Source: a virus (Duplodnaviria; Heunggongvirae; Uroviricota; Caudoviricetes). From it: a stretch of 44,087 nt of DNA. The notes under the pieces are model-generated. The model was not told the origin of the DNA, ran no database searches, and was given only the letters and a program-made list of their open reading frames with translations. Positions 8,991 through 18,866 of this stretch are shown here, one piece after another. A program made the position numbers and the translations under genes. Positions within the stretch are counted from its first letter, which is position 1, and each line of letters starts with the position of its first letter. The stretch spans positions 1-44,087 of the IMG/VR virus record IMGVR_UViG_2541047944_000002; one strand, given 5' to 3'.

Positions 8991-9410
8991 TTACTCCGGT
9001 GGGGGATTATCTTTAAGCCTGCCTCTCAAATATTTTTCTACATACTCATCGATTTCTTTTAGCCGGACTTCAAATAGCTCAATCATTCGTTGTTGTTCTG
9101 AGCCCGGTAGCTGGTTAAACAACTCAAGAAGTTTTCGTTGGGATTCATTTAACCACAATTCAGAAGATTCCTGTTCTCCAAAGAGGAGCTCAGGGGGAGA
9201 TATGCCAAGTGCCTTTCCCAATACGACAGCGTCATGCACTCCAACATTTCTGCTGCCCGCCTCATAGTTACCTATACGCGATTGCGTCCATCCGCAGATT
9301 TCAGCAAGTTTTCCTTGAGATAAACCAAGCTTCTGCCTGCGCTCTTTAAGACGCATTGCAATTTTGTCATTGAGCCTACTAGCGGCAATTTTTTCGTTTT
9401 CTTTTTCCAT
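8991..9410 (-). CDS. Phage repressor, HTH XRE family (cI/RacR-like)
   Basis: HTH motif (LGLSQGKLAEICGWTQSRIGNYE); divergent from a Cro-like gene across an operator-bearing intergenic region. Confidence 0.8.
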   Translation of the reverse strand: MEKENEKIAASRLNDKIAMRLKERRQKLGLSQGKLAEICGWTQSRIGNYEAGSRNVGVHDAVVLGKALGISPPELLFGEQESSELWLNESQRKLLELFNQLPGSEQQRMIELFEVRLKEIDEYVEKYLRGRLKDNPPPE

Positions 9411-9421
9411 TGCATCCTTGT

Positions 9422-9488
9422 ATCACGAATCGTGATTTACATAAAACACAAAACAGCTTGACCATATAACACAAGGTGTGTTTAAAAT
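9422..9488. promoter_or_regulatory. Immunity-region operators and rightward early promoter
   Basis: 15-bp perfect palindrome atcacgaatcgtgat (9422..9436); second palindrome aacacaa-g-gtgtgtt (9468..9482) overlapping a TTGACC (9458..9463) / TAAAAT promoter. Confidence 0.5.
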
Positions 9489-9506: not shown

Positions 9507-9749
9507 ATGAACAAAATTTCAACATATCGAAAACAGCTTGGGTTGTCTCAAAGACAACTCGCTGTTCAGTTAGGGTGGATACAAAGCCGACTGGCAAATT
9601 ACGAAGCAAATTTTCGTACCCCAGGACTAGAGGAGTGCAGAAAAATTGTTTCTACCCTTAATCGGCTTGGCGCTCATTGTGGACTTGACGATGTATTCCC
9701 CCCAGACGGTAAGCATAGCGAAAACAGCATAGGAGCGGTTGATTCATGA
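9507..9749 (+). CDS. Cro-like HTH regulator (YdaS-like)
   Basis: HTH motif (LGLSQRQLAVQLGWIQSRLANYE); GGAGG RBS; divergent from repressor. Confidence 0.7.
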   Translation: MNKISTYRKQLGLSQRQLAVQLGWIQSRLANYEANFRTPGLEECRKIVSTLNRLGAHCGLDDVFPPDGKHSENSIGAVDS

Positions 9750-10168
9750 AAATCAGGCATGAGCACATCGAATCAGTGCTGTTAGCCCTGGCAGCCGAAA
9801 AAGGGCAGGCGTGGGTCGCTAACGCAATTACTGAAGAATATCTCCGCCAGGGGGGAGGTGAATTGTCTCTGACACCAGGCAAGGACTGGAACAATCAGCA
9901 GAATATCTATCACCGTTGGTTGAAAGGTGAAACGAAAGCGCAAAGGGAAAAAATTCAGAAACTGATCCCTGCGGTTCTGGCAATTCTTCCGCGCGAGCTG
10001 CGTCACCGACTCTGCATCTTCGATACCCTGGAACGCCGTGCATTACTGGCGGCGCAGGAAGCGTTGAGTACGGCAATTGATGCGCATGATGATGCAGTCC
10101 AGGCCGTTTACCGGAAAGCACATTTCAGCGGTGGTGGGTCGCCCGGCGATTCTGTCGTAGTGCATTGA
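9746..10168 (+). CDS. YdaT-like protein (cII-position regulator / putative toxin family)
   Basis: 140-aa ORF translationally coupled to the Cro-like gene (ATGA overlap); recalled similarity to Rac YdaT. Confidence 0.55.
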   Translation: MKIRHEHIESVLLALAAEKGQAWVANAITEEYLRQGGGELSLTPGKDWNNQQNIYHRWLKGETKAQREKIQKLIPAVLAILPRELRHRLCIFDTLERRALLAAQEALSTAIDAHDDAVQAVYRKAHFSGGGSPGDSVVVH

Positions 10169-11040: not shown

Positions 11041-11787
11041 ATGAAAAATATTGCGACAGGCGGCGTTCTGGAACGCATCCGCCGACTGACCCCGCCACAT
11101 GTAACCGCCCCATTCAGAACGGTAGCGGAGTGGCGCGAGTGGCAACTTGCTGAAGGCCAGAAACGTTGTGAGGAGATCAACCGTCAGAATCGTCAGTTGC
11201 GGGTGGAAAAAATTCTGAATCGTTCAGGCATCCAGCCGTTGCACCGTAAATGCTCATTTGCGAATTACCAGGTGCAGAACGACGGCCAGCGATACGCGTT
11301 AAGCCAGGCGAAATCCATCGCCGATGAACTGATGACCGGGTGTACAAATTTTGCGTTCAGCGGAAAACCTGGTACCGGGAAGAATCACTTAGCGGCAGCT
11401 ATCGGGAATCGCCTGCTGAAAGACGGTCAGACAGTGATTGTGGTTACCGTGGCTGATGTTATGAGCGCCCTGCACGCCAGCTATGACGACGGGCAGTCAG
11501 GCGAAAAATTTTTGCGGGAGCTGTGCGAAGTGGATCTGCTGGTTCTTGATGAAATTGGCATTCAGCGCGAGACGAAAAACGAGCAGGTGGTGCTGCACCA
11601 GATTGTTGATCGCCGGACAGCGTCGATGCGCAGCGTGGGGATGCTGACAAACCTGAACTATGAGGCCATGAAAACATTGCTCGGCGAGCGGATTATGGAT
11701 CGCATGACCATGAACGGCGGGCGATGGGTGAATTTTAACTGGGAGAGCTGGCGTCCGAATGTCGTCCAGCCAGGAATTGCGAAGTGA
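11041..11787 (+). CDS. DnaC-like helicase loader / IstB-like AAA+ ATPase (YdaV-like)
   Basis: Walker A ([15 protein letters not shown]) and Walker B (DLLVLDEIG) motifs; follows the initiator gene. Confidence 0.8.
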
Positions 11788-15669: not shown

Positions 15670-15784
15670 AAACGGTTTGCGGGAAAAGGAGAGTTAAGTA
15701 GAATTGCTGCGGGTGCTTGAGGCTATCTGCCTCAGGCATGAACACCAAAAGGCAGATAGAGAAAAGCCCCAGTTAACATTACGC

Positions 15785-15850
15785 GTCCGGCAAGACGCTT
15801 AACATTAATCTGAGGCTCAATCTATGAACGGCAAATCTAGGTTAGCCTCT
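15785..15850 (-). ncRNA. sok: Putative Sok-like antisense RNA (approximate coordinates)
   Basis: Inferred from hok/mok organisation: antisense partner expected opposite the mok start/SD region; candidate minus-strand TTGCCT-17-TAACCT promoter just right of it. Not directly verifiable by eye. Confidence 0.3.
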
Positions 15851-16036
15851 TACGCGCCGAAAGGCAAGGAGAAGCAGGCTATGAAGCAGCAAAAGGCGAT
15901 GTTAGTCGCCCTGATCGTCATCTGTATTACCGTCATAGTGACGGCACTGGTAACGAGGAAAGACCTCTGCGAGGTACGAATCCGAACCGGCCAGACGGAG
16001 GTCGCTGTCTTCACAGCTTACGAACCTGAGGAGTAA
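15824..16036 (+). CDS. mok: Mok-like in-frame leader ORF of the hok locus
   Basis: 70-codon ORF sharing frame and stop with hok, as for mokC/hokC in K-12 (recalled). Confidence 0.5.
   Translation: MNGKSRLASYAPKGKEKQAMKQQKAMLVALIVICITVIVTALVTRKDLCEVRIRTGQTEVAVFTAYEPEE
15881..16036 (+). CDS. hok: Hok/Gef-family type I toxin
   Basis: MKQQKAMLVALIVICITVIVTALVTRKDLCEVRIRTGQTEVAVFTAYEPEE: 51 aa, single TM helix, near match to recalled HokC/Gef. Confidence 0.8.
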   Translation: MKQQKAMLVALIVICITVIVTALVTRKDLCEVRIRTGQTEVAVFTAYEPEE

Positions 16037-16106
16037 GAGACCCGGCGGGGGAGAAATCCCTCGCCACCTCTGATGTGTCAGGCATCCTCAACGCACCCGC
16101 ACTTAA

Positions 16107-16126
16107 CCCGCTTCGGCGGGTTTTTT
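16107..16126 (+). terminator. Intrinsic terminator of the hok transcript
   Basis: cccgc-ttcg-gcggg followed by tttttt. Confidence 0.6.
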
Positions 16127-16311
16127 GTTGCGCGCTGAATACGCAGGGTGAAAAATAACCATATATTTGATTATATACACAACAAAAAATAAAAGTCATT
16201 GCACCTGCACATTAAATAATCAAATATACGACGTGAAATAAATATTTTTCAGATTAATATTTTTGTCTCTATGTGGATATAACCGTTTGTACTTATAAAC
16301 CTGGAGGCATC

Positions 16312-16524
16312 GTGGAAAAAATAAAGAAACTATTTAGTAGCAAATATGCAGTCATACGTCGTGATGACCTGTCAGTTATAGTCGAAATGGATTACTTCCC
16401 TGAAACCAAAAAATCAATGATGTATCGTAATGGTCGAAAGGCAATTTTTTTACCGATGAGGGTAAGTGACATTATGGGAAATGATAAACTGCTGGATGAA
16501 TTGCGAGTCAGAGCATCCTGTTAG
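16312..16524 (+). CDS. Hypothetical small protein in an AT-rich island
   Basis: GTG start 5 nt after GGAGG; ~130 bp of AT-rich sequence upstream (16140..16270). Start codon uncertain. Confidence 0.4.
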   Translation: MEKIKKLFSSKYAVIRRDDLSVIVEMDYFPETKKSMMYRNGRKAIFLPMRVSDIMGNDKLLDELRVRASC

Positions 16525-16595
16525 TATTGGCATTAATTCTGGTATACTACATAACGGGCTGAACACCCATTCTACTGCGCCAGCGGAGAACTACG

Positions 16596-17195
16596 ATGGC
16601 GCATATACAACTGGTCAAACAAACCTCTTCTGGATTACTTCTCCCGGCGACGCCGGAGAGTTGCGATTTTTTGCATCAAATCAAAATAGGTGAGTGGATA
16701 CACGCGGACTTTAAGCGAGTGCGTAACTACGCGTTCCACAAGCGTTTTTTCAAACTCCTGCAACTGGGATTCGATTACTGGACTCCGAACGGTGGGGCGA
16801 TCACGCCTCGCGAACGAGAACTGGTGTCCGGTTTCGTTGAGTATCTGTGCGAATCAGTTGGTCGGGAACACACTCCAGCCCTGAGCGAAGCCGCAGAGCA
16901 ATATCTGAATGCCGTTGCGACACGCAGAACCCGGGATACGGCATTGCTAAAGTCGTTTGACGCTTTCCGCGAGTGGGTAACCATTCAGGCAGGATTTTAC
17001 ACCGAGCATATTTATCCTGATGGTAGTCGTGGGCGCAGGGCAAAATCTATCGCATTTGCGAATATGGACGAAACCGAGTTTCAGCAGGTTTATAAAGCCG
17101 TACTGAATGTGCTGTGGAACTGGATCCTGTTCCGTAAATTCTCCTCTCCGGAGGAAGTCGAAAATGTGGCCGCGCAGCTGCTGGAGTTTGCGTAA
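16596..17195 (+). CDS. YbcN-like protein (DUF1367)
   Basis: 199-aa ORF recalled as resembling DLP12 YbcN; conserved position upstream of Q in lambdoid prophages. Confidence 0.6.
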   Translation: MAHIQLVKQTSSGLLLPATPESCDFLHQIKIGEWIHADFKRVRNYAFHKRFFKLLQLGFDYWTPNGGAITPRERELVSGFVEYLCESVGREHTPALSEAAEQYLNAVATRRTRDTALLKSFDAFREWVTIQAGFYTEHIYPDGSRGRRAKSIAFANMDETEFQQVYKAVLNVLWNWILFRKFSSPEEVENVAAQLLEFA

Positions 17196-18036: not shown

Positions 18037-18062
18037 CTCAATCTGTTATCCGGGGCTATATT
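18033..18062 (+). promoter_or_regulatory. Late promoter PR-prime (TTGACT-18-TATATT) with qut-like leader
   Basis: -35 TTGACT overlaps the Q stop codon; -10 TATATT 18 bp downstream; two hairpins in the leader. Confidence 0.5.
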
Positions 18063-18124
18063 CCTCACGCGCCAGCAAAATCTGGCGTCGGGATTGGCGT
18101 CCCGGATGTTTACGGAGCGATATG

Positions 18125-18146
18125 AGACGCGCCCGCGTCTTTTTTC
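18125..18146 (+). terminator. tR-prime-like intrinsic terminator
   Basis: agacgcg-cc-cgcgtct followed by tttttt, about 65 nt downstream of the promoter. Confidence 0.55.
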
Positions 18147-18308
18147 ATATCGTTTGCACAGTCACATTCGCGATTTATGGCGGGCTGTGTGGGGGAGCCG
18201 AAAGGCTCGCCGGTTTCCGTACCCGGTTACGCCAACCCTGCACAGTTCGCCACCAGTTCGATTGGCGTCGTCGGTGGCGATAATTTCCAAATGTACGGAG
18301 TTATCGTT

Positions 18309-18866
18309 ATGACCACTCAAATCTCTGTTGAAACTCTCTCCCCGATCACCCATAACCAGATTCCTGTTATTACCACCGAACTTTTGGCGCAGCTTTACGG
18401 CACTGAGCCGGTGCGTATTCGCCAGAATCATCATGAGAACAAAGTACGCTTCGTTGAAGGGAAACACTTTTTCAAAGTTGTTGGTAATGACCTTAAAGAA
18501 TTGCGGGTCGCTTTAAACTACTCACAAAATCCAGTTTCACCCAAAGCCCGCTCCCTCATCCTCTGGACAGAACGAGGCGCAGCACGCCACGCCAAAATGC
18601 TCGAAACCGATCAGGCATGGGATGTGTTCGAAAAACTGGAAGACTGCTATTTCAGTCAAAAGGATCCGTCAACGCCAGTTTCATGCCAGAAAAGTTACGA
18701 CACGCGAGTTCTCTGTTATCAGAGAGGCGGTGTCACTGTTTCCACAATTCAGTTACGGGATGATGATATTGTTATTTCCCTTGAGTCATGGCTGGAACTG
18801 GCGAGAGCCAATGGTTGGTTTGTTGTTCGCAGAGATAAACTGGTGGAAAGGTTGATGCAGCTTTAA
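18309..18866 (+). CDS. ORF6N/Bro-N-like DNA-binding protein (antirepressor-like cargo gene)
   Basis: ATG at 18309 with GGAG RBS; family call from memory and uncertain; sits between tR-prime and the holin. Confidence 0.45.
   Translation: MTTQISVETLSPITHNQIPVITTELLAQLYGTEPVRIRQNHHENKVRFVEGKHFFKVVGNDLKELRVALNYSQNPVSPKARSLILWTERGAARHAKMLETDQAWDVFEKLEDCYFSQKDPSTPVSCQKSYDTRVLCYQRGGVTVSTIQLRDDDIVISLESWLELARANGWFVVRRDKLVERLMQL

Follow-up and report, generated by a model that had tools for sequence, protein, structure and literature searches.

A putative GfoA-family antirepressor gene behind an AT-rich, LexA-box-free leader in a Rac/Qin-like Escherichia coli prophage

Introduction

Prophage repressors of the DicA/GfoR class are not cleaved on induction but lose their activity when an antirepressor binds them (PMC3121763). 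The experimentally proven antirepressor of the Salmonella prophage Gifsy-1 is GfoA, which inactivates the repressor (PMC3121763). LexA control is the published regulation for the Gifsy antirepressor class, in which the antirepressor gene and the irsA gene that follows it form one LexA-controlled operon, and non-polar irsA deletions have no significant effect on induction (PMC3121763). In Gifsy-1 of strain D23580, a single-nucleotide polymorphism (SNP) in the -10 element of PdinI-gfoA abolishes phage production (PMC5322425). Control by something other than LexA is also possible for such antirepressors, as FsoA of Fels-1 shows (PMC3121763), and in the cryptic prophage Qin of E. coli K-12 the antirepressor Rem, found by its authors via iterated searches from GfoA, relieves repression by DicA, its inducing signal being reported as unknown (Ragunathan & Vanderpool 2023, PMC10448788). 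Here, we analyse a 70-amino-acid (aa) open reading frame (ORF) and the AT-rich leader preceding it in a stretch of viral DNA of 44,087 nucleotides (nt; IMG/VR record IMGVR_UViG_2541047944_000002, Caudoviricetes, hereafter the window), which a preliminary description had presented as an independently acquired gene of unknown function with its own promoter. Judged by sequence comparison, the product of the ORF is probably a small GfoA-family antirepressor (Gifsy-1 type), and the leader preceding its gene has no LexA box.

Results

Relationship of the 70-residue protein to GfoA

The putative antirepressor gene lies on the plus strand at 16312–16524 (stop codon at 16522–16524), begins with GTG and is preceded by the Shine-Dalgarno sequence GGAGG (16303–16307, plus strand). 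This start, already given in the preliminary description, is also the one called by the NCBI pipeline in identical DNA, where the product is annotated as WP_000411312.1, 'hypothetical protein'. The Shine-Dalgarno sequence described with it is present, but its spacer to the GTG is 4 nt, and the 5 nt first quoted are obtained only when counting from GGAG. The start region is conserved in relatives as GGAGGyAT-n-GTG-rAAAA, and GTG opens 10 of the 11 family loci translated as well as L090 and L092, with ATG in L020 and L088; across the family, GTG or TTG starts predominate. The mechanically longest reading, 83 aa from the GTG at 16273, was rejected, its extension being broken by indels and unconserved in diverged relatives. 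Compared with the 69%-identical homologue of ZYB62 (L007), the nonsynonymous divergence (dN) is 0.21 and synonymous sites are saturated (34.5 synonymous differences), indicating that the ORF is under purifying selection and that its coding capacity is real.

The homology search called for in the preliminary description was run and connects the ORF to a known antirepressor. With the single sequence as query, only close relatives in E. coli and Shigella were returned, and the narrow alignment A1 likewise matched only these two in the genome collection; the exact window protein is present on more than 1000 of their contigs. The ORF matches phrog_1813, a family of function unknown, with an E-value of 1.6e-32. 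A profile search of 1.84 billion cluster representatives yielded 28 clusters, all of small proteins, and a profile of 18 diverse members retrieved 333 proteins of ~70–85 aa, every one labelled 'hypothetical', from Citrobacter, Enterobacter, Klebsiella, Leclercia, Hafnia, Brenneria, Dickeya, Sodalis and other Enterobacterales. The family profile A4 aligns with GfoA over 68 columns (hhalign probability 97.6%, E-value 3.4e-12). For this comparison, the published forward primer was used to scan IMG/VR and led to the GfoA ORF; the reverse primer matches the same ORF, which encodes 82 aa from a TTG/GTG start and lies between DinI and IrsA homologues, as published; GftA was located in the Gifsy-2 record at 11464–11685 (GTG start, 73 aa), where both published primers match.

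Intermediate sequences bridge the two proteins. Searching with GfoA by tblastn finds a subfamily of 79–82 aa at 34–44% identity (E-values from 5e-6 to 3.5e-11), and the window ORF is 29–37% identical to this subfamily over nearly its full length. Directly compared by BLASTP, the ORF and GfoA align over the N-terminal 39 residues (E-value 4e-5), and seven residues, Y12, R16, D19, P30, Y38, R39 and P48, are invariant from one to the other. These comparisons make it very probable that the ORF belongs to the GfoA family.

An AlphaFold2 model from a deeper alignment (predicted local distance difference test, pLDDT, 87) consists of four strands and a C-terminal helix. Foldseek found no significant neighbour of this model in the PDB (E-value 2.5 or worse) or BFVD (0.07 or worse), the best matches being VapB antitoxins in the PDB (E-value 2.5, template-modelling score 0.3) and a viral uncharacterised protein (E-value 0.066, template-modelling score 0.46). 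Pfam and PADLOC gave no match for the ORF. We rejected a fragment of a small alarmone synthetase as a chance match, the NCBIfam YjbM hit (E-value 0.0023; 17.7 bits against a cut-off of 320; phmmer against the PDB, E-value ~1) having disappeared with the family profiles; an SH3-like domain (profile versus the BTK SH3 domain, E-value 0.05) received no support from the fold search. Residues 32–34 (16405–16413) vary among otherwise near-identical alleles (TKK, NQK, TPK, TLK and NPK) in which the rest is fixed, and may form a specificity-determining or an unconstrained loop.

The AT-rich leader and its control

The window has a mean GC content of 0.488; its lowest-GC 170-nt segment is 16151–16320, at 0.265, and the lowest 100-nt value, 0.21, starts at 16161. 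GC content is 0.37 in the ORF, 0.27–0.32 in the leader and 0.49–0.50 in the flanks. The AT-rich island previously described between the hok locus and the ybcN-like gene is thus the most AT-rich DNA of the whole window, and both neighbours were correctly named (Pfam HOK_GEF, Rfam sok, DUF1367); the tract is longer than the ~130 base pairs (bp) first given, extending over ~160–170 bp (about 16140–16300). We delimit the control region of the putative antirepressor gene as 16131–16302 on the plus strand. It contains no LexA box and carries blocks near 16151–16176, 16187–16202, 16233–16238 and 16255–16261 that are conserved among the window and loci L008, L007, L022, L090 and L092. The AT-rich leader still accompanies the ORF in L008, a locus devoid of hok.

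Within this region, a candidate sigma-70 promoter (16233–16261, plus strand) combines a -35 element GTGAAA (16233–16238), a spacer of 16/17 nt and a -10 element TAATAT/AATATT (16255–16261). It has the best plus-strand score of the region and ranks in the top 0.013% of all window positions with a rough position weight matrix. At the aligned position, the -10 element is TATATT in L007, L022, L090 and L092, and each of the six AT-rich leaders examined keeps a sigma-70-like site. From these features we infer the promoter position, with transcription predicted to start near 16268. An antirepressor gene needs an independent promoter because the early promoters of the prophage are repressed in the lysogen; the promoter of its own that had been proposed for the ORF finds a counterpart in the site conserved in six leaders, but this site is a prediction, and the consensus scan reported no promoter on the plus strand.

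On the minus strand, a leftward promoter-like site (16199–16170; ATGACT-18 nt-TATAAT) agrees with the consensus at 10 of 12 positions and scores higher than any other site of the region; its hexamers coincide with conserved leader blocks in L008, L022 and L090, and transcription from it would run antisense into the 3' end and terminator of hok. The leader also contains a 16-nt inverted repeat, 16162–16177 (TATATTTGATTATATA) and 16213–16228 (TAAATAATCAAATATA), with 15 of 16 positions complementary and the arms 35 nt apart, which the diverged relatives L007 and L022 do not share, and RNAalifold predicts no conserved pairs in the leader. Sites for Fur, CRP and IHF were rejected, being no better than in shuffled sequences and not conserved. 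Matches to the Fis consensus are present, but at non-homologous positions among relatives. Control by the prophage's own repressor was considered on account of operator-like repeats (CATAWAACACAA) at 9440–9474 that loosely resemble 16171–16182; it was rejected because this block is not conserved in ZYB62, although the ZYB62 repressor is identical to that of the window.

A different control sequence precedes many members of the family. Near-consensus LexA boxes (17–18 of 20 positions) are found in L012, L016, L018–L021, L023, L025, L038 and L088; all six of the 79–82-aa relatives examined have one, as do the GfoA and GftA loci. In the Brenneria and Dickeya loci, which are devoid of dinI, the boxes lie 32–36 nt upstream of the ORF, whereas in the Citrobacter, SPN3UB, pAEv1818, Gifsy-2 and GfoA loci they precede dinI; dinI is missing from the LexA-controlled relatives L016, L018 and L019, and is therefore not universal. 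Even a close E. coli variant, P0011/L088, whose protein is 77% identical to that of the window, has a LexA box (2955–2974) ahead of its ATG (3001). In L090 and L092, which share the leader type of the window, a scan of 190 nt gave no good match to a LexA box. In the lineage of the window, an AT-rich region free of LexA boxes stands in place of the LexA promoter (and of dinI where present), so the antirepressor gene probably responds to some signal that is not the direct release of LexA.

The antirepressor slot and its mosaic surroundings

The left boundary of the module is an intrinsic terminator, AACCCGC-TTCG-GCGGGTT followed by a T-run (16105–16130, plus strand; stem 16105–16122), detected by a terminator scan. 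Similarity to the hok-less locus L008 starts just 3' of this hok terminator, and Gifsy-2 has an almost identical terminator ahead of its LexA-controlled dinI-gftA operon. On the right, a 71-nt linker (16525–16595, plus strand; GGGCTGAACACCC...TGCGCCAGCGGAGAA) leads to the ribosome-binding site of the next gene; it is conserved in L007, L008 and L009 and partly kept downstream of K-12 rem and of Gifsy-2 gftA. The next gene, a ybcN/irsA-like DUF1367 gene (16596–17195, plus strand; Pfam E-value 8e-98), is a homologue of Gifsy-2 irsA (STM1020, 54% identity). Because no terminator was found between the ORF stop and 16596, the nearest match lying at 16647 inside DUF1367, transcripts from the antirepressor promoter would probably continue into DUF1367, as in the Gifsy operon. 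DUF1367 is followed by DUF1364/YbcO and then by a DUF1133 Q-like gene. The ORF therefore lies between a terminator on its upstream side and an irsA homologue on its downstream side, past the replication genes and not in the immunity region.

This arrangement recurs across genera. A family member lies directly upstream of DUF1367/irsA in 9 of the 12 distinct contexts examined; in the remaining contexts it precedes NinB, a hypothetical gene and DUF968, or a 173-aa gene accompanied by a colicin-like one. All contexts examined are lambdoid prophages, with the family member between the replication genes and Q. The order dinI, small GTG ORF, DUF1367 occurs in Salmonella phage SPN3UB, in pAEv1818 (labelled an Aeromonas phage) and in Citrobacter prophages, and the conserved slot extends to lambdoid phages of Salmonella, Citrobacter, Dickeya and Brenneria, in addition to the record labelled Aeromonas phage. 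At the family level, then, the ORF is conserved with the neighbouring operon, an outcome that the preliminary description had itself set against independent acquisition, and instead of a foreign gene of unknown function we see a resident regulator of a conserved slot (terminator, antirepressor, irsA/DUF1367). What holds of the earlier proposal is that leader and ORF form a discrete mosaic module with varied neighbours: hok, a methyltransferase with an ATPase, or an AAA protein with an S8 peptidase on the left, and DUF1367 or a hypothetical gene with DUF968 on the right. The module is present in 176 of 5426 complete E. coli genomes, as compared with 1330 for the DUF1367 gene (at least 85% identity). 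Three DUF1367 prophages devoid of the module contain no hidden homologue.

To the left of the slot, the neighbours vary between hok, dinI, a DNA methylase, McrB_N-HNH, a methyltransferase with an ATPase, and an AAA protein with an S8 peptidase. The cargo in this position (L004, L006, L007/L086, L008/L087, L018, L019 and L090) is defence- or toxin-like and includes an iteS-like AAA ATPase with an S8 peptidase, a Doc-family toxin with a small partner, a cytosine methyltransferase with an ATPase, McrB_N-HNH, hok and dinI, so that the position looks like a cargo hot spot. In the window it is occupied by a hok/mok/sok type I toxin-antitoxin locus (15711–16036, plus strand), which lies outside the antirepressor module and comprises the hok coding sequence (15881–16036; Pfam HOK_GEF, E-value 1.5e-23; annotated hokD in identical DNA), a mok frame from 15824 and sok (Rfam, 15711–15886, 112.8 bits). 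The hok 3' untranslated region and terminator (16045–16126) give a sub-threshold match to isrK (30.5 bits), and comparison with Gifsy-2 (L023, 10980–11000) points to a common landmark on the left edge of the antirepressor slot. On the opposite side, a 7-bp stem (TGCGCCA 16576–16582, TGGCGCA 16597–16603) encloses the Shine-Dalgarno sequence of DUF1367/irsA and includes its ATG. It precedes DUF1367 in ~18 loci whatever the upstream gene, both arms being invariant, and may serve as a translational gate for DUF1367.

The prophage and its repressor

The window is a Rac/Qin-like lambdoid E. coli prophage with int, xis, ralR, recET, kilR and an immunity region, followed by replication genes, a nin-type region, Q, lysis and packaging genes. 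The presumed target of the antirepressor is the prophage repressor (8991–9410, minus strand), a 139-aa protein of the DicA/GfoR/GtgR type with an N-terminal helix-turn-helix (HTH). Only HTH_3-type domains were found in it by Pfam, with no Peptidase_S24, and it is thus devoid of a self-cleavage domain. In alignments with DicA, GtgR, SPN3UB gp47 and pAEv1818 gp21, it shares the C-terminal motif LLELFNQLPxSEQ with DicA (Qin) and GtgR (Gifsy-2). The same repressor class is present in every relative examined, namely PEC148, ZYB62, EC15, vB_Apl-pPE4, SPN3UB and pAEv1818. Divergent from the repressor gene lies a Cro-like HTH gene (9507–9749, plus strand), recognised from the ORF list, Pfam HTH_3 and the annotation of identical DNA, and followed by ydaT (9746–10168); together, these two genes define an immunity region of the Rac/Qin/Gifsy type.

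The prophage may carry a second, unrelated antirepressor module. Rfam matches at 18056–18866 comprise isrK (18069–18145, 75.6 bits), C4 antisense RNA (18173–18257) and its a1/b1 target (18056–18108). The isrK/C4 locus lies just downstream of Q, at the start of an ORF6N-domain gene (18177–18866), and resembles the isrK-orf45-anrP locus of Gifsy-1, whose antirepressor is turned on by a small RNA. At the window's left edge, matches at 462–606 and 2168–2346 correspond to the small RNAs SraC/RyeA and SdsR/RyeB beside the integrase end and to the RalA antitoxin RNA beside ralR.

Two related records deserve mention. PEC148 (L001/L083) is 100% identical to the window over 16100–16600 and has an identical repressor, whereas the two differ by ~670 bp in how far the Cro-like gene lies from the ORF, reflecting an indel in the replication/early region. 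PP818812.1, 'Actinobacillus phage vB_Apl-pPE4' (L002/L093), is deposited as a complete Actinobacillus pleuropneumoniae phage; over 16100–16600 its identity with the E. coli prophage DNA is 98%, the two have the DicA-type repressor, ydaT, recET and hok in common, and its host label looks doubtful.

Discussion

We propose the following mechanism, which we consider likely by analogy with the Gifsy phages. In the lysogen, the 139-aa DicA/GfoR-type repressor would hold the early promoters off and, because it is devoid of a cleavage domain, could not be inactivated by RecA-stimulated self-cleavage. Induction would then need an antirepressor that binds the repressor and removes it from its operators. 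The gene of this antirepressor would occupy its own transcription unit outside repressor control, starting after the hok terminator (16105–16130), which would insulate it from upstream transcription. The unit would consist of the AT-rich control region (16131–16302), a strong ribosome-binding site combined with a weak GTG, the 70-aa gene and probable read-through into irsA/DUF1367. In the Gifsy phages and most relatives, a LexA-repressed promoter drives the unit, such that DNA damage induces the phage; in the lineage of the window a non-LexA signal would switch it on. In this respect, the earlier idea of a separately transcribed mosaic unit was right in spirit: an antirepressor must escape control by the repressor, and the terminator fits.

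Several observations weigh against this assignment. GfoA identity is only 19% in the multiple alignment, and because pairwise similarity is low, the link to GfoA depends on the profile and on intermediates. The family shows no detectable similarity to GftA (hhalign E-value 0.23), and comparison of A4 with Rem was no better, either with Rem alone (E-value 0.023, probability 2%) or with an 11-sequence Rem alignment (E-value 0.03, 1.6%). Among close alleles dN/dS is ~1, a value from only 3–6 differences. The published mode of control is missing as well: there is no CTG-N10-CAG within 700 nt upstream in the window, L007, L008, L009 or L022, and no DinI match anywhere in the window, which has hok and its terminator upstream instead. 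The candidate promoter falls below the threshold of the consensus scan, which gave no plus-strand promoter. A copy of the ORF with 94% identity resides in the EC15 prophage, whose repressor is only 22% identical to that of the window, implying either that the antirepressor is broadly cross-reactive, as GfoA is, or that the pairing is loose. Finally, antirepressor activity of the window protein on its prophage's repressor is inferred.

The strong compositional contrast of ORF and leader with their flanks, the presence/absence polymorphism among otherwise similar prophages and the hot spot for defence-like cargo to the left of the slot would all suit a 'moron', an accessory gene acquired independently and read from a promoter of its own, serving the host or lysogen, for example in exclusion or fitness, and having no role toward the repressor. 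We regard this as improbable in view of the profile homology to a proven antirepressor, the position relative to irsA conserved across genera and the LexA control of relatives; in addition, PADLOC finds no match, and the lack of a terminator after the ORF speaks against a self-contained unit. We consider highly improbable an account in which the ORF is not a regulator and owes its transcription to the early promoter, the hok terminator being passed by antitermination. It would agree with the tight DUF1367 synteny across a short gap (40–70 nt), with the lack of a terminator between the two genes and with a fold that has no recognisable relatives in Foldseek. However, the Gifsy antirepressor and irsA form one LexA-controlled operon in which irsA deletions are without significant effect on induction (PMC3121763), the family also precedes NinB or DUF968-type genes, and the ORF is homologous to GfoA.

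A further alternative accepts the homology and holds that the antirepressor is decaying or silenced: its LexA promoter would have been lost, the gene would be unexpressed and the AT tract would be filler or an H-NS-silenced remnant, leaving the prophage locked in. The lack of both a LexA box and a consensus-grade plus-strand promoter is as expected from such a history, many E. coli prophages of this type are cryptic, and one promoter SNP suffices to lock Gifsy-1 (PMC5322425). Nevertheless, the ORF, the GGAGG-GTG region and the leader blocks are conserved between copies whose synonymous sites are saturated, the exact protein occurs on more than 1000 contigs, and a near-identical module is found in a record deposited as a complete phage genome, all of which makes silencing an unlikely explanation. 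Returning to a functional antirepressor under LexA-independent control, we put forward only tentatively, as the less likely option, that the AT-rich leader is a dedicated sensory promoter which couples induction of this E. coli/Shigella/Salmonella prophage class to a signal other than DNA damage, SOS and non-SOS versions of control being exchangeable in the slot. A possible trigger would be temperature, osmolarity or growth phase relieving the silencing by nucleoid proteins of the H-NS/Fis type.

Through this assignment, a widespread 'hypothetical protein' (phrog_1813) acquires a probable function; it is likely the induction switch of a common Rac/Qin/Gifsy-like type of E. coli prophage. In the same slot, homologous antirepressors are preceded either by a LexA-box promoter or by an AT-rich LexA-free leader, and this difference in the control region bears on when such prophages and the adjacent defence or toxin cargo are mobilised. 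The question of what induces DicA/RacR-type E. coli prophages thereby becomes directly testable.

Among the described systems, other small proteins act in a similar way. Tum of phage 186 and AntC of N15 are likewise small proteins from SOS promoters that bind a non-cleavable repressor (cited in PMC3121763), but they are other proteins at other genomic positions. The gene is also distinct from Gifsy orf45 of the isrK locus, which lies downstream of Q, a position at which the window carries an isrK copy of its own (18069–18145). GftA of Gifsy-2 resembles the window protein in its slot (dinI, gftA, irsA), its GTG start, its size (73 aa) and its mechanism class. Rem of Qin occupies the same slot, right after the hokD terminator and before nin-type genes, with the downstream linker conserved; it too is small (83 aa), has a DicA-type repressor as its target and is preceded by no LexA box (no CTG-N10-CAG within 700 nt upstream of K-12 rem). 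The region upstream of rem, however, is not AT-rich, and identity with K-12 rem was rejected, the Rem sequence being unrelated. The precomputed Pfam match PF27490 covers all Rem relatives and only one member of the window family (P0098); this overlap and the origin of Rem in iterated searches are the only hints of a distant kinship.

The closest counterpart is GfoA of Gifsy-1. The two proteins are homologous by profile, small (70 aa in the window, 82 aa in GfoA) and read from a non-ATG start; their genes share the slot behind a terminator and upstream of irsA/DUF1367, between the replication genes and Q, and both prophages have a short, non-cleavable repressor of the GfoR/DicA type. In contrast to GfoA, the window protein ends after the conserved ...R-A-S-C and is devoid of the 10–15-residue C-terminal tail, and in place of dinI and a LexA box its gene is preceded by a ~170-bp AT-rich leader. 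GfoA-type antirepressors are thus known; what is new is a member of their family with a LexA-independent control region.

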